Assembly: GCA_002762785.1 (NCBI GenBank)
Contig: PCXY01000005.1
Location: 188,796-252,795 of the forward strand
Source: Candidatus Woesearchaeota archaeon CG10_big_fil_rev_8_21_14_0_10_45_16
GTDB lineage: Archaea > Nanobdellota > Nanobdellia > Woesearchaeales > GW2011-AR9
DNA length: 64,000 bases
Direction of reading: 5' to 3'
Of this stretch, positions 9,660 to 48,910 are shown one piece after another. The notes under the pieces are model-generated. The model worked only from the letters and a program-made list of their open reading frames with translations, was not told where the DNA came from and ran no database searches. A program made the translations under genes and the position numbers. Within the stretch, counting starts at the first letter, position 1. Each line of letters starts with the position of its first letter.

Positions 9660-10103
9660 ATGCTTTTAGACCACATCAATAATCTTAAGAATTATTTTCA
9701 ACTAAACCCCAACCTGAAAGAAGCTCTGGCTTTTCTGCAAAGAGAAGATCTGGGTTCTTTAAGTCCAGGACGGCACGAGATCATGGACGACAAAGTTTTC
9801 GCCATCGTCATCGACTGTGACCAGATGCCGAAAGAGAACACGAAACCGGAAAGACACCGCAAGTATCTTGATCTTCATTACACTATCAAAGGGAATGATC
9901 TAGTCGGCTGGAAACCACTGCATCTCTGTTCTGCCAGCACCGAGTATGATGAACAGGACGACTACCAGCTGTTCAGCAATCTTCCAGAACAGTGGATAGA
10001 TGTGCCTGAAAATCATTTTATCCTTTTCTTCCCAGAAGATGTCCATGCCCCGCTCGCCGGAACTGGTCATCTTAAGAAAGTCGTCGTCAAAGTCAAGATT
10101 TAA
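9660..10103 (+). CDS. YhcH/YjgK/YiaL family protein (DUF386)
   Basis: The 147-aa protein has a YhcH-like beta-sandwich composition with motifs 'HRKYLDLHYTIKGND' and 'FPEDVHAP'. Confidence 0.55.
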   Translation: MLLDHINNLKNYFQLNPNLKEALAFLQREDLGSLSPGRHEIMDDKVFAIVIDCDQMPKENTKPERHRKYLDLHYTIKGNDLVGWKPLHLCSASTEYDEQDDYQLFSNLPEQWIDVPENHFILFFPEDVHAPLAGTGHLKKVVVKVKI

Positions 10104-10126
10104 ATTCATTTAATTTCGATACGCTG

Positions 10127-11227
10127 ATGTCATCAAGATCCAAAAAAATTCTTGGAAACCTGGCCATCTTTATAGTTGGAATTATCATCATCTTCAGTAT
10201 CGCGGAAATCACGGTCAGGGTCTTCAAACAGGATGAACTGGCTCCGGGCCTGTGGCCGGAAGAGAACACCAGATATGTTCCTGAGCTGAAGCGCAACCTT
10301 TACGTCAACATCAGCAATCTTACCAGGTCAACTTCTGAATACAGCTACCAAGTAAGTACTAATGAACAAGGTTTTCGGGACTTTCATCCAATCCTAAAAG
10401 ACGAAGAAACAACAAGGATACTAGGTCTGGGATCTTCTCAAACATTTGGCAACACCGTGGATGCGGACGATACTTACCTCAGCCTTCTAGGTAATGAGCT
10501 AGATGTCGAGACCATTAATCTCGGCCTGGGTGGGATCGGTCTGGATGAGATGAAGATTATCTTGCAGGAGTACGGCTTTTCTTATCAGCCGGACCTTATC
10601 ATCGTTGAGACTAGCTTGGGAAACTTCCAAAGCGGATCTGATTTTGCCCATAAGTCGGAGGCTTCGAGAGAAACTAAGAACAGCGCTTTTTTCTGGCTGT
10701 ATGAACATTCAAAACTGGTGAACCATCTTTATTGGCTGTCAAAGACCACCCATTTAGGAAGCAAGGTGGTAAACACTCTGAAACTAAACGAGCATACTCA
10801 AGACAGCGTCTCTTTTGAGCTCTCTCTTCTCAGGGGTGATGATGATCCCACTTTGTATGAAGCGAAGAAGAGCGTCTTCCGCAATCTTCAGGAGATCAAG
10901 AAGCTGGCTGATGAAAAAGAGGTTCCATTGATGGTTGTTTTTGTCTCTTCATCGTATCAGGTTGAACCAAAAAGGCTTCAAGCTCTCGTTGAAAAGTTTG
11001 GTCTTGCAGAAGAAGATGTCAATCCAGAAAACGCCGAAAATTTTTTCCGTGAAAGCTGTAAAAGGCTGAACATCCCCTTTTTCGAGACCACGGCAGCGCT
11101 CCAGGATCACCAGAAGGGGACTCCAGTTATCTGGAACTTTGACAATCATCTCACGCCAAGAGGTAATCAGATATATGCTTCAGAACTCGCAAAATTTATT
11201 AAAGAACATCATCTAATCGAAAGGTGA
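10127..11227 (+). CDS. Membrane-anchored SGNH/DltD-like protein
   Basis: An N-terminal TM helix is followed by 'ILGLGSSQTFG' and 'INLGLGGIG', which resemble SGNH motifs. Confidence 0.45.
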   Translation: MSSRSKKILGNLAIFIVGIIIIFSIAEITVRVFKQDELAPGLWPEENTRYVPELKRNLYVNISNLTRSTSEYSYQVSTNEQGFRDFHPILKDEETTRILGLGSSQTFGNTVDADDTYLSLLGNELDVETINLGLGGIGLDEMKIILQEYGFSYQPDLIIVETSLGNFQSGSDFAHKSEASRETKNSAFFWLYEHSKLVNHLYWLSKTTHLGSKVVNTLKLNEHTQDSVSFELSLLRGDDDPTLYEAKKSVFRNLQEIKKLADEKEVPLMVVFVSSSYQVEPKRLQALVEKFGLAEEDVNPENAENFFRESCKRLNIPFFETTAALQDHQKGTPVIWNFDNHLTPRGNQIYASELAKFIKEHHLIER

Positions 11228-18636: not shown

Positions 18637-18841
18637 ATAAATCATAAAGAAAAGGTGGACAGCTTACCTGGTTTCCCACGGAATGCAGTACACCCAAGTA
18701 CGGAAGCGGTCTTAATTTCTGTGTTCGAAATGGGAACAGATGAACCCCGCCCCTATGGCCGTCCAATAGGCTCGAGAAAGCCTCCCTTTATAAAGATTTT
18801 GATTATTTTTCCACAACGATTTAAAAAGGCAGTAGAATCAG

Positions 18842-24832: not shown

Positions 24833-24895
24833 CCAGGCGGCTTTGAAGGCCTGCCGAGGAGAATTGAACTCCTGTCTCTTGAGTCACAGTCAAGA
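24833..24895. other. Three consecutive perfect stem-loops in the hisS upstream region, with unknown function
   Basis: The hairpins are 'caggc...gcctg', 'aggag aattgaa ctcct' and 'tcttga gtcacag tcaaga', with stems of 5, 5 and 6 bp. Confidence 0.3.
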
Positions 24896-25072
24896 ATCTT
24901 ACCATTAGAAGACGGCAAGCATAAGAAACGATGTGTGGGCTTTCGCCTAACGATGATGCAGAGAACTATCTATACTTTTCAAGACAGAGCAATAACTAGA
25001 AAAATCACCGACAATGAATACAATCAACTCGTGTCATAAGTATCTAAAAATAGTATTTCATTAAAAATGTTT

Positions 25073-25810: not shown

Positions 25811-25898
25811 GGCAGCTGGGGGGAATCGAACCCCCTCCACAGGTTTGCTGCAACCTAACTCCACAGACCCGTATACTAGCCGTTATACTACAGCCGCC
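25811..25898 (-). tRNA. tRNA-His (anticodon GUG) with a genomically encoded G-1 and a 15-nt intron after position 37
   Basis: The T-arm 'GGGGG TTCGATT CCCCC' is intact and the acceptor stem GCGGCTG pairs with CAGCTGC. G-1 opposes the C73 discriminator, which is the His identity element. The anticodon loop reads 'CTGTGGA', and the 3' half 'ACCTG' pairs with 'CGGGT' after removal of 'AGTTAGGTTGCAGCA' (about 25846-25860). CCA is not encoded. Confidence 0.65.
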
Positions 25899-38419: not shown

Positions 38420-39139
38420 TTAATCCTCTTGAGGCTCTTCGTCAGAATCTTCGTCTTCTGCATCCTGATCTTCTTCAGAGGATTCTTCAACGGAAGCTTC
38501 TTCTTCAGCCATCTCCGGTTCTTCTTCCATCACTTCTTCATCAGTAGATGACGGAGACTCGCCCTGAAGCTTGACCACACGGACGGAAACTTCTTTCACG
38601 GGAAAGATCTTGTGCAGCCCTTTCTTGAAGGTGCCCTGAACCTTTCTGGTGACGATGGCATTGACAAGGCTTTCAAAAGAATTTCTACTCAGTTCTTCCT
38701 GCATCAGTTCACGCAATTTTTCGCGCAGAGCCGTACGGACAGACCGCTGGGACCGATAACGGGTGACGATGAACGTCTTGACGACAGCTTTCTTGCCGTC
38801 TTTGGTCGTTCCCAGGACGTAATCATCGATCCTGGCCGTGTTCTTCCTGACAGCCCTCTTGACATAAGAAGCAGACAGCTCGTAGCCGGTGGTGTAAGTC
38901 CTCAAGACGCTGCCGTCTGCCGTTCCGATACGGAAGAAGACGTTGGCGTTCTGATCCTTGATGTTGCCGGTGATATCTTTCAGGTTCGCTTTCATAGACC
39001 GGCCTAGAGCGCTTTCGGGCGAAGTCAAGTATGCTTCGCCGACTTCTCGCTGACCAAAGATCTTAGGAGCGGTGATAGTGTACCATAATTTTTTCTTGGA
39101 TTTTATCCTGCTAACTTGTTTTTTTTCGGTTTTTGCCAT
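38420..39139 (-). CDS. rps3ae: Ribosomal protein S3Ae (S1e) with an acidic C-terminal extension
   Basis: The N-terminal 'KKKLWYTITAPKIFG' is typical of S3Ae. The last ~40 residues are a Glu/Asp/Ser-rich tail. Confidence 0.85.
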   Translation of the reverse strand: MAKTEKKQVSRIKSKKKLWYTITAPKIFGQREVGEAYLTSPESALGRSMKANLKDITGNIKDQNANVFFRIGTADGSVLRTYTTGYELSASYVKRAVRKNTARIDDYVLGTTKDGKKAVVKTFIVTRYRSQRSVRTALREKLRELMQEELSRNSFESLVNAIVTRKVQGTFKKGLHKIFPVKEVSVRVVKLQGESPSSTDEEVMEEEPEMAEEEASVEESSEEDQDAEDEDSDEEPQED

Positions 39140-39359: not shown

Positions 39360-40661
39360 ATGGACATCCAACCAGGACAGGTAGCCCGATACATTGCCGA
39401 GCATGATCAAATTTTGGACCCTCATGGGACCAGAGTCCCTAAGATCCCACTTACTCCTTATTTCATAGAGCAGCCTTTTCTGGAAGAAGTGGCCGTGATG
39501 GTTGGAGCTTTCACCAGGCTTCATGAACATGTCGCCCAAAAGTACGGCACCTTCCGAGAGATCCTAGGGTATGAAGAATACCTGGACCGACTATTACAAG
39601 GTTCACCAACGTTTGCACTCAATACGGCGCTGACACGCCTTGATGTTTTTCCTACAGACGAAGGTCTCAAAGTGGTTGAGGTCAATTGCCAATCGCCTGG
39701 CGGCAACGAGGATTCAGCTGCTTTAGAGACACTCTTCAAGAAGCATTTTGCAATAGAAGGCGAACAGCTTCCTGACAGGATAGGCACAGCTCTTGACGCT
39801 ATTGTAGGTTGCTACCATGAACAGATTTCTTTGAAAGGAGGAGCGGAAATAGATAAACCCTCCATAGCCCTGATAGAAAAGAGGAAAGACATCAGCAGCC
39901 TGATGGGGCGTTTTGCCGTATTTATAGACAGGGCGCGGGAATTAGGACACCCCTGCGAGATCGCCGCTCCCGAAGATCTGACGTTTCACGGCAAGGAAGT
40001 CCGTCTTGACGGAAAAGCAGTCGATATTATCTACAATCGCCTGATAACCGACGAGATCGCCCACGAACCAAAGGTGGGCGGTTACGACTTCGCCAGGCGG
40101 CTGAATGACAGCGAAGCAGCAGTAGTGCTGCCCTTCAGCGCAAAACGCGCAGATTCCAAGAGGATGTTGACCTTCCTATCTGACCCCAGATACCGCTCCC
40201 TCTTCCCGACGGAGCTGCAAAAAGATCTGCACATCACCAGCAAATATATCCCAGAGACAGTGATTTTAGCAACGCCAGATGATGCAGACGGATTGATTAG
40301 AAGATTAAAAAGAGAACAAGACGGATGGGTATTGAAAGCAGCTAATTCCGTAGCGAGCCAGGCCGTCTACCTCGGGAGCGACATGACACCAGCAGACTGG
40401 CAACTGGCCATCGACAGAGCTGTCGGAAAGGATTGGGTCGCCCAGAGAAGGATCCCCTTGCCAAGGATGCCCGTAACTTTCTACGATCAGAGAACCAAAT
40501 CACAAAGAACGACGCAGATGGTCTACAACGTCTGCCCATTCACTTTTGGTGGCAAGTTTACAGGAGCATTTTATGTCCGTGCTTCCCAAGATAACCTGAC
40601 TTCAGCCAAGAGCGGCACTGCTTACACCATACTTCCCTGCTTTGAAAAGAGAAAGGATTAA
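39360..40661 (+). CDS. ATP-grasp-type amide ligase, glutathionylspermidine-synthase-like or circularly-permuted ATP-grasp
   Basis: The protein is 433 aa. The C-terminal 'KAANSVASQAVYLG...VYNVCPFTFGGKF' resembles the GspS/YgiC synthetase region. Confidence 0.45.
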   Translation: MDIQPGQVARYIAEHDQILDPHGTRVPKIPLTPYFIEQPFLEEVAVMVGAFTRLHEHVAQKYGTFREILGYEEYLDRLLQGSPTFALNTALTRLDVFPTDEGLKVVEVNCQSPGGNEDSAALETLFKKHFAIEGEQLPDRIGTALDAIVGCYHEQISLKGGAEIDKPSIALIEKRKDISSLMGRFAVFIDRARELGHPCEIAAPEDLTFHGKEVRLDGKAVDIIYNRLITDEIAHEPKVGGYDFARRLNDSEAAVVLPFSAKRADSKRMLTFLSDPRYRSLFPTELQKDLHITSKYIPETVILATPDDADGLIRRLKREQDGWVLKAANSVASQAVYLGSDMTPADWQLAIDRAVGKDWVAQRRIPLPRMPVTFYDQRTKSQRTTQMVYNVCPFTFGGKFTGAFYVRASQDNLTSAKSGTAYTILPCFEKRKD

Positions 40662-40686
40662 ATCAACATTCCAACATCCACAGAAC

Positions 40687-41286
40687 ATGGAGCCACATTT
40701 CCAGAGCACACCGTTCACTACCGCTGCTTCTAGTCTCCTTGCCGTGTTGCATCACTTCAAGCCGGAGATCGCATTGTCCAGGGAAAATGAATTTGACATC
40801 TGGCAGAAGACAGCCACCTTGCCGACGAGAGCCTCATCAATCTATGCTTTGGCCACCTACGCAGCAGCGAGAGGCATAAAACCTAAAGTTGTCGTCGAGA
40901 AAAAAGAGTATGATTTCCCAGATTATCGTTTCTACAGATACACTAAAAAGGACATCGAACATGCCGCGTTCACATCCAATTTGCACTTGCAAGCCGCAGA
41001 ACGAGATTGCGTGGAAATCGTCGAAGAAGAGATCACGTTCAAGAGGATAAAAAAAGAGCTTGGCGATGGAAAGATCCTCATCGCCCGGCTAAATACAAAA
41101 CCATTCCGCAATGATAAGAGGAATACTTCTAATTTCCTGGTTCTTCATGGTTTTTCAGAAGGATATTTTCACATCATTGATCCGGCTTTCAGGGCTTACT
41201 CCATTCCGGAAAAAATCCTGGAGGATTCTTTTGAATCATTAGAAACAAGGAAATTCAGAGACCACCGGGTCTTGATATTCTATTAA
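40687..41286 (+). CDS. Hypothetical protein of about 200 aa, co-operonic with the ligases
   Basis: The start was set at 'MEPHFQ' to avoid overlapping the upstream gene. The 'HxxxxxG'-type motif 'FLVLHGFSEGYFHIIDP' is present but no catalytic Cys was found, so the family is unclear. Confidence 0.4.
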   Translation: MEPHFQSTPFTTAASSLLAVLHHFKPEIALSRENEFDIWQKTATLPTRASSIYALATYAAARGIKPKVVVEKKEYDFPDYRFYRYTKKDIEHAAFTSNLHLQAAERDCVEIVEEEITFKRIKKELGDGKILIARLNTKPFRNDKRNTSNFLVLHGFSEGYFHIIDPAFRAYSIPEKILEDSFESLETRKFRDHRVLIFY

Positions 41287-41491
41287 ATTAGCTTATTTTC
41301 CATAAAAAGACCAATATCTTGCTTTTTTTCTTGAATGATTACATTTTATTCATTCTCTTTTCGAATATGCACCAACAAAACACCCAAAATTGACTAAAAA
41401 GGCAAATATAGTTTATAGAATCAAAATATTTATATATAGGTGCCACCTTTGAAAATATACAAAAAATGACCGTAGTATACAAAAGAGGCAA

Positions 41492-42841
41492 ATGGTGTCG
41501 AAAATTGGTAATGAATATGAATTCCTACTTCTGGATAAAGAGGGTTATGTCGCCAACCAAGCTGACAGAATTTTAAATGATCCCCGAAATCTGAGACTGG
41601 CAGAACCGATAGTGCCAGAGATCAGTCTGGCGCAAGTAGAGATCAACTCTAAACCTGTCGAGACAATTGCGGAACTTCATCACGATCTTTTGCCGCGCCT
41701 CGCTCTTTTGGAGGATATCTGCCAAGATCATGGCCTTTTGGCAACACCTATCAGCGAGTTAGGTGCGGGAAGAGGCGAGCGACGCAATGGGAAGGCCAGA
41801 TACGAATTATACACTGACATCCTTAGTGCAAGAGGAAATGATCTATTACATAGGATTACCGGAATCCACGCCCATCTTGATCAAGAGCCAGATAGAATTC
41901 TTGACCAGCTAAGACTCATCGTCGCTTTAGACCCTTTGAGTGCGGCAGTGACTGCAAATAGTCCCATAACTCCTGGATATTTAGCCACCCCCGAATCGCC
42001 TCTCAGAGAAGGCGGATTCAATTCGGCTAACAACTGGCGCATCGTCAACATGAGAACATTTATGTTCGCAGAATATCCACTGCATGCCCAGCTCTTGGGA
42101 TATCCTTCTTCCTTACAAGAGATTGGTCAGCAGAACCAGCAGCGCTGGGAGGAATGGCTTGACGTAGCCAGGAAAAAAGGTAAAGAAGATGAATATAGGG
42201 CCGGCTTCCAACCAGATAACACCGGATTTTTGCCATACCGTCTCCGGCCTTTCGGACCAAAAGGGACTATAGAGATCAGGGCATTTGGATCCGTGCCGCT
42301 GGATATAGATCTCGCCACATTAGCTTTTCTCAAAGGCAGCAACGACAGGATGATCGAACGTAATATACCAGTCAGGATCAGTGAGGTCGATGGAGAGTAT
42401 TCGTTTACCGACAAAGAGATAGTACTACCTCCTTTCAGGACAGTCCAGAGATTTGCCAAACTACAAGCCAATTACGGATTGGAAAAAAAGCCCTCCCCAC
42501 AACTTGCTGAGTATCTTTCTCAGGTTTTGACTTTCGCTGAAGAAGGTCTGCCACAAGAAGACAGACCATACCAGCAACCTCTCTGGGAGATGGCAGCAAC
42601 AGGAAAAAATCATTCCAGCCTAATCCTAGAATATCTCCACCAACAGAGAAAAGAAAGACAGTTTGAAGGCCCGATCTATGCCGAAGGCAGGATTCCCCAG
42701 ATTACAGCATCGAATATTCACCGCTTCAGCGAACCAGAAGTTGCTCAAGCCCAGCTCTTCGCCCGCAAGCTTTATGTAGATAGCCTTTCTCTCCCTATCG
42801 GTGGAAGGCAGCCTTATGAGCCTCTCCAACTTGCCAGTTGA
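41492..42841 (+). CDS. Glutamate-cysteine ligase family 2 carboxylate-amine ligase (YbdK/EgtA-like)
   Basis: 'NEYEFLLLD', 'LAQVEINSKP' and 'ITGIHAHLD' match GCS2 motifs. The RBS 'aagagg' lies 4 nt upstream of the ATG. Confidence 0.75.
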   Translation: MVSKIGNEYEFLLLDKEGYVANQADRILNDPRNLRLAEPIVPEISLAQVEINSKPVETIAELHHDLLPRLALLEDICQDHGLLATPISELGAGRGERRNGKARYELYTDILSARGNDLLHRITGIHAHLDQEPDRILDQLRLIVALDPLSAAVTANSPITPGYLATPESPLREGGFNSANNWRIVNMRTFMFAEYPLHAQLLGYPSSLQEIGQQNQQRWEEWLDVARKKGKEDEYRAGFQPDNTGFLPYRLRPFGPKGTIEIRAFGSVPLDIDLATLAFLKGSNDRMIERNIPVRISEVDGEYSFTDKEIVLPPFRTVQRFAKLQANYGLEKKPSPQLAEYLSQVLTFAEEGLPQEDRPYQQPLWEMAATGKNHSSLILEYLHQQRKERQFEGPIYAEGRIPQITASNIHRFSEPEVAQAQLFARKLYVDSLSLPIGGRQPYEPLQLAS

Positions 42842-42843
42842 AA

Positions 42844-43542
42844 ATGTGTCGGATGTTAGCAGCTGCGGGGAATCTTGACCTCAAGAGATTGCTAGCAGGC
42901 GCTGTGTGTATGGCCAAGGACGAAAACGAACGCCACGAAAGGAACGCGGCGGAAGTCTGGCGCCATGATGGCGGCTGGGGCATCGCCTATCTTCAAGACG
43001 GGGAATGGCAGATATACAGATCAGTAAAACCGATATTTGAAGATAATCTTAGCAAATTTGACGGTGTCAAGACTTCTGTCGCTATCATCCATGCCCGAAA
43101 GGTTACCAAAGGCGAGATCGCCTTGAAAAACACCCATCCTTTCAGCAAAAGAGATTATGTTTTCTGCCATAACGGCACCGTCTTTGACAACATCTCTTTT
43201 TCACAGGATTTTAAAGTGAAAGGCAATACTGATTCAGAGCAGATATTTTATTCATTACTTACAGATCACAAAGATGAGATGAGTTCTACCATCAGAAACA
43301 ACATGAAAAAGTATAAAGATTTTACTGGAATAAATATAATCCTAGCGAATCCTAAAAAAACTTTTGTAAGTATCCACCATAACGAATGCCCGCTGTATTA
43401 CACCATGAAAATGCTGAAAAGCAAAGATGCCGTCGTCATCAGTTCTGAGAAACTGCCGCAGCTCGAAGGAGAATGGCAGGAGATCAGCATGGGCAAGATC
43501 GTTGAAATCGATAATGAGAAGCTGGATGTAATGGTTGTGTAG
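42844..43542 (+). CDS. Class II (Ntn-type) glutamine amidotransferase-like hydrolase (EgtC-like)
   Basis: The N-terminal 'MCRMLA' leaves Cys1 after Met removal. 'HARKVTKGEIALKNTHPF' is also present. The gene starts 2 nt after the GCS2 stop. Confidence 0.7.
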   Translation: MCRMLAAAGNLDLKRLLAGAVCMAKDENERHERNAAEVWRHDGGWGIAYLQDGEWQIYRSVKPIFEDNLSKFDGVKTSVAIIHARKVTKGEIALKNTHPFSKRDYVFCHNGTVFDNISFSQDFKVKGNTDSEQIFYSLLTDHKDEMSSTIRNNMKKYKDFTGINIILANPKKTFVSIHHNECPLYYTMKMLKSKDAVVISSEKLPQLEGEWQEISMGKIVEIDNEKLDVMVV

Positions 43543-45036: not shown

Positions 45037-45264
45037 ATGAACATTATCATCTATACCAGCCCCTCTGACCAATGGTCAGCTGAACTAAAAACTTTCCTCA
45101 AGAAGAAAAAGCTCCAATTTGAAGAGAGGGAAGTCATGGAAGAACATCCTTTCTGGGGCGAAGTTTTGCAGAAGACCGACCAGTTAAGCACCCCGGTCAT
45201 CGATATTGACGGCACCATCATCGTCGGCTTCGATAAAGAACGGATTGAGAAAGCCCTTAGTTGA
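45037..45264 (+). CDS. Glutaredoxin-fold protein lacking the CxxC active site
   Basis: 'IIIYTSPSDQWS' sits where a CPxC motif is expected, and the thioredoxin-fold spacing with 'TPVIDIDG' is retained. A TATA box 'aaagtatatataaac' lies about 25 nt upstream. Confidence 0.5.
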   Translation: MNIIIYTSPSDQWSAELKTFLKKKKLQFEEREVMEEHPFWGEVLQKTDQLSTPVIDIDGTIIVGFDKERIEKALS

Positions 45265-48088: not shown

Positions 48089-48910
48089 TTACTTAAGGAG
48101 TCTACTTCTTTTAAGATGTAAATAATTTTTGCCGGAAACTACTTTTTCGCCCGTTTCTGCTTCGAGCTGCTTCCTAGCGACGCCAGCAACAGCCCCACCT
48201 TTTCGTGCAGCATCTCGATTCTCAGAAAAACCTTGCGCATCATTTTTACGGGCTATCTTTGTCGTTGAAGCCTCGCCCAGCATCGTGAATATCAATTCTA
48301 GATCATCCATGTGGTCGCGCAGATTCTCATGTTGAAGATTCTTAATTTCTTTATGTTCTCGAGGACTAAGATCAAAAGTAGCTTTAGATATTTCTGATGT
48401 TAGGATGGCAAATTCCTTTTTCCTTTCCACGCCCCTCTTATCCCATTCATCCGTCAATTCGTCTCTGATGGCGATGCCTCTCACCCTTCTTTCGATCCAA
48501 TCGTTGGGGTAACCTTTAGCTTTGTAGAGCTCTTTCATCCGTTTTTGAGCTAGTTCAGGATTTTCAATCTCTTTGACACGTTCGTAACCCACTTTAGCCA
48601 GCCACAACTTAAATGGCTCCGCTTTCTTGGAGGGGATAGACTGGATTAACCTAAAAGCGCCTTCAGTGTTGATGCAGTCTGTTAACCTCATCTTACTGTC
48701 GTTGGCCACCATCTTCAACCGGTTACAATTTGTAACCGTTTCAACCGATCCCTCCTGAAGAAGCCTATGCTTCAAAACTTTCCAGTAATTCCGAGCATCA
48801 TCACTTTCAGACAAGATACCAACGACATCAACGACAGAAAACCACCACTCTCCCTTATGCCAAGTCTTCCGTATGCTCTTACCTTCAAAGACAGCGATCG
48901 TGTTTTCCAT
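48089..48910 (-). CDS. DinD-like protein (Bro-N domain plus a DNA-damage-inducible protein D-like C-terminal domain)
   Basis: The N-terminal Bro-N segment is 'KTWHKGEWWFSVVDVVGIL'. The C-terminal 'HKEIKNLQHENLRDHMDDLELIFTMLGEASTTKIA' resembles DinD/KilA-C. Confidence 0.6.
   Translation of the reverse strand: MENTIAVFEGKSIRKTWHKGEWWFSVVDVVGILSESDDARNYWKVLKHRLLQEGSVETVTNCNRLKMVANDSKMRLTDCINTEGAFRLIQSIPSKKAEPFKLWLAKVGYERVKEIENPELAQKRMKELYKAKGYPNDWIERRVRGIAIRDELTDEWDKRGVERKKEFAILTSEISKATFDLSPREHKEIKNLQHENLRDHMDDLELIFTMLGEASTTKIARKNDAQGFSENRDAARKGGAVAGVARKQLEAETGEKVVSGKNYLHLKRSRLLK

Follow-up and report, generated by a model that had tools for sequence, protein, structure and literature searches.

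A C39-like protein without its catalytic dyad is linked to a GCS2-family ligase and a class-II amidohydrolase in a candidate peptide-forming island of Woesearchaeota

We analysed a 64,000-nucleotide (nt) stretch of the genome of Candidatus Woesearchaeota archaeon CG10_big_fil_rev_8_21_14_0_10_45_16 (assembly GCA_002762785.1, contig PCXY01000005.1, positions 188,796 to 252,795 of the forward strand), referred to below as the window, and studied a gene island at its positions 39360-43542. Four open reading frames (ORFs), all on the + strand, were confirmed at 39360-40661, 40642/40687-41286, 41492-42841 and 42838/42844-43542, and were named g1 to g4 in that order. The first encodes a predicted circularly permuted ATP-grasp amidoligase (g1, 39360..40661, 433 amino acids (aa)) and the second a C39-like, papain-fold DUF3335 protein (g2, 40687..41286, 199 aa). 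They are followed by a GCS2-family ATP-dependent carboxylate-amine ligase of the YbdK / glutamate-cysteine-ligase type (g3, 41492..42841, 449 aa) and a stand-alone class-II amidohydrolase with an N-terminal nucleophile (Ntn), of the YafJ/EgtC type (g4, 42844..43542). The g1 and g2 products are 100% identical to COV20_04205 and COV20_04210 of Ca. Woesearchaeota archaeon CG10. The true start of g2 is most likely ATG 40687, because the motif M-x-P-[YH]-x-Q opens all 120 of its homologues, and this places 25 nt between the g1 stop and the g2 start. The start of g4 was corrected to ATG 42844 (MCRM...), 2 nt past the g3 stop. A sequence-only reading of this DNA, made earlier, had described two amide ligases, a small unknown protein and an amidohydrolase in a single operon; the observation was confirmed, and the interpretation was partly supported.

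The g1 sequence alone gave no Pfam match (E up to 1) and none of use in NCBIfam or the Protein Data Bank (PDB). Its close relatives comprise only five others among 5.8 billion clustered proteins, one of which bears PF14403. A profile built from the six g1-family sequences reached 5281 representatives, and among 44 sampled relatives linked by this profile, CP_ATPgrasp_2 (PF14403) was found in 38, CP_ATPgrasp_1 in 16 and GSP_synth in 7. Against the PDB, the family profile matched 3n6x, Cp1B, YgiC and GspS at E values of 7e-14 to 1e-7. The predicted structure of g1 showed the permuted ATP-grasp fold seen in GspS, YgiC and eukaryotic glutathione synthetase, and its top structural matches were glutathione-handling enzymes throughout, at 10-16% sequence identity. 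The Mg/ATP-binding pattern is present, with R-x-D ... E-x-N near the N-terminus and a Lys and an Arg later in the chain, and nine residues (R93, D95, E107, N109, R227, K267, K326, Q362 and R407) are invariant in the 44 family sequences. The first four presumably correspond to R316, D318, E330 and N332 of GspS. The profile homology and the predicted fold thus assign g1 to the fold shared by CP_ATPgrasp_2, GspS and eukaryotic glutathione synthetase, within which it forms a divergent branch, as the sequence-only reading had proposed in calling it GspS-like or circularly permuted; by direct hidden Markov model match, g1 fails PF14403 membership, being too divergent. In the literature searched, no mention of CP_ATPgrasp_2 or PF14403 was found.

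The second ligase, g3, matched GCS2 (PF04107) with an E value of 1.8e-13 and 51 bits against a gathering score of 21, in agreement with its earlier assignment to this family. At positions 47-369, across the whole catalytic domain, the g3-family profile aligned with YbdK (1r8g, 1.4e-8) and with glutamate-cysteine ligases from plants. Ten residues are invariant in the family (E8, E10, E43, E50, H126, R183, N243, R250, E261 and R263), and the GhExE active-site signature of GCS2-type ligases (as defined in PMC2588565) is intact in g3 as G6-N-E8-Y-E10. The NCBIfam equivalogs for glutamate-cysteine ligase and EgtA gave at best 20-36 bits for g3 against cutoffs of 176-463, with EgtA at 20.8 against 370.8.

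The amidohydrolase g4 matched GATase_4 (PF13230) with an E value of 8.5e-21 and 74.5 bits against a gathering score of 23, and its PDB relatives are 3mdn and 1te5. From ATG 42844 the protein begins with MCRM, consistent with the N-terminal-Cys enzyme that had been read from the sequence, and it retains the HARK, HNG and TDSE motifs, whose roles are known from GlmS and PurF. The likeness to EgtC that had been noticed also held: the closest curated family is EgtC (TIGR03442), matched over the full length at E 3e-16, yet its 59.5 bits lie far under the cutoff of 218.65. None of g1 to g4 reached an NCBIfam equivalog cutoff, so naming g3 or g4 GshA, EgtA or EgtC is not justified. Membership of the canonical glutathione pathway was likewise rejected, with GshA, EgtA and GshB equivalog scores far under their cutoffs; the pathway serves below only as an analogy for how the island might work.

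In the window, g3 and g4 are 2 nt apart, and in 10 other loci their spacing varies between -32 and +66 nt, which suggests that the two genes are translationally coupled in all of them. Related loci, numbered with the prefix L below, were gathered by searches with g1, g3 and g2. Such tight coupling would suit a two-subunit amidotransferase in which g4, as a glutaminase, gives ammonia to g3 and perhaps to g1, so that a carboxylate is amidated as by MurT/GatD or asparagine synthetase. The Ntn domain of class-II amidotransferases normally works with a synthase partner, and in L093 and L094, which have no g4, a class-I GATase lies directly upstream of g2. However, g4 occurs without g3 in L029, L040 and L050, and the only characterised stand-alone GATase_4 that we know of, EgtC, acts as a hydrolase rather than as a source of ammonia. 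We therefore consider an ammonia-transferring pair distinctly unlikely.

The protein between the two ligases, previously described as small and unknown, is a degenerate C39-like member of DUF3335 (PF11814, Peptidase_C39-like), which it matched with 56.7 bits against a gathering score of 25. Its structure was modelled with a pLDDT (predicted local distance difference test score) of 95.8, and the model matched the double-glycine peptidase domains of PCAT1 and ComA and the pseudomurein endoisopeptidase PeiR; it also resembled papain-fold amide-forming enzymes and the C39-like domain of HlyB. At the catalytic positions, Cys is replaced by Thr12 and His by Asn149, and the oxyanion Gln6 and Asp165 are kept. 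Of 120 Woesearchaeota homologues, 92 have T and 24 have C in place of the catalytic Cys, and 105 have N and 4 have H in place of the catalytic His. Two comparisons confirmed this residue mapping. One was an hhalign alignment with a C39_2 paralogue of L039 that bears Cys and His; the other was made by eye with the GNAT-DUF3335 protein of Tistrella, a Pfam-confirmed family member in which FTCGPAAL and PHWVVVV...HDP are retained. Since both catalytic residues are replaced, g2 is probably a non-catalytic or non-canonical C39-like domain. It is nevertheless the best conserved and most widespread of the four proteins, with 45-66% identity over more than 145 clusters, and its invariant charged residues include E35, R48, D79, R81, R134, N136 and K189. 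RimB was considered as a DUF3335 or g2 homologue and rejected, as it is a retropepsin-like protease. The paralogue in L039 (5277-5993) is a second C39-family protein (Peptidase_C39_2) with Cys and His intact, encoded between g1 and the degenerate g2.

A 205-nt, AT-rich spacer on the + strand (41287..41491) separates g2 from g3, with a probable terminator and promoter. An oligo-T run (about 41323-41329) directly follows g2, the BRE/TATA-like element AAAATATTTATATAT (TFB recognition element and TATA box; about 41423-41437) lies about 55-70 nt ahead of the g3 ATG, and AGAGG (41484-41488) stands just upstream of that ATG. In an alignment of 10 g2-to-g3 spacers from related loci, 160-360 nt long, the oligo-T and AAATATTTA[AT]ATAT elements were common to most, though not all. 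Consensus scans for sigma-70 promoters and hairpin terminators were uninformative for an archaeon. The oligo-T run and the TATA-like box in the spacer suggest that g1-g2 and g3-g4 are most likely two transcription units rather than one operon. The co-directional arrangement of the four genes is thus real, whereas the spacer breaks the tight spacing claimed for them, and the single four-gene operon is not upheld. The window spacer holds no ORF of at least 60 aa, only short ones of up to 50 aa, and Rfam gave no match in the cluster. A system of ribosomally synthesised and post-translationally modified peptides with a precursor peptide was rejected on these grounds, as no small ORF stood out in the window's g2-g3 spacer, to which the scan was confined, and no Rfam element was found.

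The linkage of g2, g3 and g4 recurs in many Woesearchaeota loci, in varying order. The window and about 10 other loci have S3Ae on the - strand followed by g2 and g3-g4. The order is g3-g2-g4 in L017 and L031, and g3-g2-x-g4 in L022, L057, L063 and L104. Further arrangements are g1-g3-g4-g2 (L008), g3-EamA-g1-g2-g4 (L001), g4-g2-g3-g4 (L084) and g3'-g1-C39_2-g2-g3-g4 (L039), the last with two GCS2 paralogues, one of which overlaps the g1 start. Partial sets were also found, with g1-g2 in L004 (without g3 or g4), g1 alone in L011, g3 alone in L015, and g3 with a Ddl-like ATP-grasp in L012. In a set of 25 g2 loci with 3 kb or more of sequence to either side, g3 lay within 4.5 kb of g2 in 12, g4 in 15 and both in 11, and g1 was present in 2. 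The proposed co-conservation of the genes therefore stands for g2, g3 and g4 and not for g1; the ATP-grasp ligase, with its five close relatives, falls outside the conserved set to which it had been assigned. Indeed, g2, g3 and g4 are the recurrent core, and g1 is a rare accessory, one of several alternative ligases.

Since the linkage outlasts at least five gene orders, a shared function of g2, g3 and g4 can be argued. The four genes might instead have no joint function and be neighbours merely by Woesearchaeota synteny, as the flanks are conserved too, g2 is in its own predicted transcription unit, and each gene is found without the others somewhere. Against this stand the survival of the linkage through rearrangement, the predicted coupling of g3 and g4, the repeated recruitment of other amide ligases and amidohydrolases to the island, and a Selenomonas bacterial plasmid that pairs the same two ligase families. 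We regard mere neighbourhood as improbable.

Between S3Ae and g2 lies a slot of variable content in which other amide-bond enzymes recur. It holds a Ddl-like ATP-grasp, an Asp/Glu racemase and a class-I GATase in L029; a racemase, RimK-like and GSH-S-like ATP-grasps and an M55 D-aminopeptidase in L049; and a YheCD-like ATP-grasp with a GATase in L094. Other occupants are a lysine-2,3-aminomutase with two AlaDh_PNT proteins (L069), a PALP enzyme with DUF2334 and an amidohydrolase (L033), and a GT4 glycosyltransferase with two PIG-L proteins (L078). These contents hint at peptides with D-amino acids or modified amino acids. Upstream of g2 in L004 (5384-6889), and also in L067 and L068, lies a 501-aa protein without a Pfam match, paired with a divergent AstE_AspA-type carboxypeptidase; its ETNSCPGG motif is like the EVNCQSPGG of g1. 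The protein from L004 and L068 was tried as a hidden permuted ATP-grasp and rejected, as hhalign gave no link. In L004, a MazE/ParE-type toxin-antitoxin pair (9997-10626) occupies the place where the window has g3-g4. The locus L009 (CAYFJV010000001.1), labelled 'uncultured Methanosarcinales archaeon', is syntenic with the Woesearchaeota loci and has the same g1-g2, and its taxonomic label or bin is probably wrong.

A glutaredoxin-like gene with a CPWC motif lies directly after g4 in 8 loci in which GH3 is absent, at a spacing of -11 to +160 nt, and may be an associated gene. The window has a glutaredoxin-like ORF at 45037..45264 (+; PF00462, E 1.6e-7) with SDQWS in place of the CPWC of its orthologues and no cysteine anywhere. 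Elsewhere, the protein from L033 is without both Cys (DPWS), and those from L004 and L068 are monothiol (CPFS and CEFS). The island could accordingly make a low-molecular-weight thiol used with glutaredoxin, with g3 as a gamma-glutamylcysteine ligase, g1 as an analogue of glutathione synthetase or GspS, and g4 recycling the product. The glutathione-handling structural matches of g1, the glutamate-cysteine ligases that make up the characterised relatives of g3, the 8 adjoining glutaredoxin-like genes (one of them overlapping g4) and the cysteine-synthase-type PALP enzyme in the L033 island are consistent with such a thiol. However, the GshA, EgtA and GshB equivalog scores argue against it, the window protein has no cysteine, and most loci are without g1. 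Furthermore, the glutaredoxin-like proteins look thioredoxin-reductase-dependent, as we read their sequences. A thiol product seems rather unlikely on this evidence.

Upstream of the island and divergent from it lies the gene for ribosomal protein S3Ae (38420-39139, -). Its C-terminal tail comprises about 50 aa, nearly all Glu, Asp and Ser, and in most related loci the S3Ae tails are Glu-rich, variable and often Glu-terminated. The ligases might extend a protein carboxylate with amino acids, in the way that RimK modifies ribosomal protein S6, with g2 as an adaptor that holds the substrate and the acidic S3Ae tail as a possible target. The divergent position and Glu-rich tail of S3Ae favour tagging of this kind, as do the many invariant Arg and Lys residues of g2. 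Catalytically dead C39-like domains, such as that of HlyB, which is among the structural matches of g2, bind substrates. Bacterial DUF3335, moreover, occurs in fusion with GNAT (PMC10318531) and has a RimK-like ligase as its partner. On the other hand, characterised GCS2 and GspS-type ligases act on small molecules, transporters stand within clusters (EamA in L001 and MATE in Selenomonas), the S3Ae tail is variable and does not correlate with the presence of g3 or g4, and a scan for small ORFs, confined to the g2-g3 spacer of the window, gave none that stood out. We give the tagging of a protein little credence. The same low standing applies to a broader proposal, in which g2 would be the hub of a variable amide-ligase island, present across Woesearchaeota, that builds and edits a peptide modification on a protein (for example the S3Ae acidic tail) or on a cell-envelope component. 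Such a hub would be served by ligases of the GCS2, permuted ATP-grasp, Ddl-like, RimK-like and YheCD-like types and also by racemases and amidohydrolases. If true, it would be a new archaeal peptide-tagging or editing system with a pseudo-peptidase adaptor.

Bacterial plasmids that carry distant relatives of g1 offer a comparison for the gene content of the island. On the Selenomonas plasmid, a MATE exporter stands between a GCS-family ligase and a g1-like ligase, and an alpha/beta hydrolase is encoded close by; this order of ligase, exporter and ligase is the order of L001 (g3-EamA-g1). The set on a Bacillus plasmid consists of GspS-family paralogues with a MATE exporter; ATP-grasp ligases, a racemase, MFS transporters and the M20 peptidase ArgE are found on a Streptomyces plasmid; and EctB, ThiF, TauD, GNAT and ATP-grasp genes on a Pantoea plasmid. 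These plasmid gene sets resemble small-molecule biosynthetic clusters.

In 2009, Iyer, Abhiman, Burroughs and Aravind reportedly placed CP_ATPgrasp_2 in the synthesis of small peptides, in association with a GCS2-like ligase, peptidases and a GAT-II-like amidohydrolase, and the Pfam description of the family reportedly does likewise. The plasmid gene sets agree with this, the Selenomonas set being a bacterial example. That neighbourhood is similar to the island in linking the three enzyme families and in the predicted synthesis of small peptides. The Woesearchaeota island, however, is archaeal (DPANN), its ATP-grasp is optional and its core is g2-g3-g4; moreover, its peptidase partner is C39-like and without Cys and His, as opposed to an alpha/beta hydrolase or an M20 enzyme. 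For GCS2-like ligases encoded beside amidotransferase-like peptidases, an earlier study by that group predicted the making of glutathione-like peptide metabolites (PMC2588565).

Similar comparisons can be made with the characterised pathways. The island resembles EgtA/EgtC of mycobacterial ergothioneine synthesis, in which a GCS2 ligase likewise goes with a stand-alone amidohydrolase of the Ntn class-II kind, there for the removal of a gamma-glutamyl group, but no gene of the EgtB or EgtD type is among its flanking genes and the scores are far under the cutoffs. It was rightly judged from the sequence not to be an ergothioneine cluster. With the synthesis of glutathione (GshA with the eukaryotic-type GS) and of glutathionylspermidine (the GspS synthetase/amidase) it shares a two-ligase logic, in which a permuted ATP-grasp ligase acts after a GS-fold ligase. 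The ligase part of GspS has a papain-like amidase domain as its partner, and the position of g1 beside the papain-fold g2 recalls this pairing. However, the identity is 10-16%, no equivalog matched, and g2 is without the nucleophile, because of which it cannot be assumed to be an amidase.

The known relatives of g2 itself are also only partly comparable. DUF3335 is known as a fusion partner of GNAT domains (PMC10318531), and a bacterial GNAT-DUF3335 gene was found adjoining an RLAN-RimK ligase, so that a member of the same Pfam family as g2 stands beside an ATP-dependent amide ligase. The bacterial protein keeps Cys, His and Asp and is fused to GNAT, whereas the archaeal g2 is stand-alone, has Thr and Asn at the catalytic positions and has GCS2 and GAT-II partners. 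The C39-like domain of HlyB, in turn, is part of an ABC transporter and has lost another residue, and no transporter is fused to g2. The island is thus an archaeal variant, as yet uncharacterised, of an association of ligases and peptidases that had been predicted computationally; its less expected features are the degenerate yet highly conserved C39-like hub g2 and the variable ligase slot beside it.

We propose, with a confidence about evenly balanced between yes and no, that the island, which is specific to the Woesearchaeota (DPANN) lineage, makes and trims a small non-ribosomal peptide or amide of the gamma-glutamyl type. As a first step, g3 would turn a carboxylate into an acyl-phosphate and couple this to an amine, forming the first amide bond; in the precedent of the GCS2 family, that carboxylate is the gamma-carboxylate of glutamate, and we infer the substrate class accordingly from family membership. 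Where present, g1 would then extend a free carboxylate of the first product with an amino acid or amine, in the manner of glutathione synthetase or GspS. As an EgtC-like Ntn hydrolase, g4 may re-cleave the gamma-glutamyl amide, for turnover or to unmask an intermediate; in this enzyme class, the residues kept in g4 hold free glutamine or a gamma-glutamyl head group. The most likely role of g2 would be to bind a peptide or an enzyme rather than to cut. Export of the product as a free small molecule is suggested by the EamA and MATE genes within some clusters, as an exported small molecule fits both the EamA gene of the L001 cluster and the MATE exporter of the Selenomonas set. The proposal is further supported by the enzyme identities, the intact catalytic residues of g1, g3 and g4, the coupling of g3 to g4, the linkage that survives rearrangement, the ligases and amino-acid-modifying enzymes in the slot beside g2, the neighbours of the bacterial g1 relatives, and the published prediction for GCS2-like ligases (PMC2588565).

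Several observations weigh against a gamma-glutamyl peptide pathway. No protein of the island reaches any equivalog threshold, and trimming depends on g4 alone, because g2 is without its catalytic dyad. The gene g1 is missing from most loci and sometimes solitary (L011), and the two-ligase pathway is therefore not the conserved state. None of g1, g3 and g4 was present in 9 of the 25 well-flanked g2 loci, and g2 and g3-g4 appear to be under separate, putative promoters. In addition, the S3Ae, metallophosphatase and GH3 flanks are common to most loci. Some of the co-occurrence is therefore synteny retained from common ancestors, and loci related in this way do not count as independent samples.

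In the window, S3Ae and the metallophosphatase form the upstream flank on the - strand, and the downstream flank comprises a secreted GH3 glycosidase, a 109-aa ORF and the glutaredoxin-like ORF. A foreign origin of the island was considered and rejected, as the GC content is even across the region (0.45-0.47). PADLOC models gave no match for g1 to g4, and an anti-phage defence system is not supported. A few kb downstream of the cluster, an ORF at 48089-48910 (-) encodes a BRO-N domain, which belongs to a family characteristic of mobile elements and viruses. The RNA genes detected in the window were a 5S rRNA (18654-18766, -) and two tRNAs (24849-24919, - and 25811-25897, -). The match of the second tRNA covers 87 nt against a 71-position model, and an intron or a long variable arm is possible.

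Woesearchaeota are DPANN archaea with small genomes and very few biosynthetic pathways, and a ligase/hydrolase module retained across the group therefore probably makes something that the cells need. Candidates are an osmolyte, a redox thiol, a peptide for signalling or for the envelope, and a modification of proteins. The protein g2 is a clear case of a papain-fold peptidase family in which an archaeal branch has exchanged Cys/His for Thr/Asn and is still very conserved. To our knowledge, no archaeal member of any of the four families has been characterised, and stand-alone GATase_4 and CP_ATPgrasp_2 proteins are almost untouched biochemically. Identification of the product would give a function to several large uncharacterised families at once.

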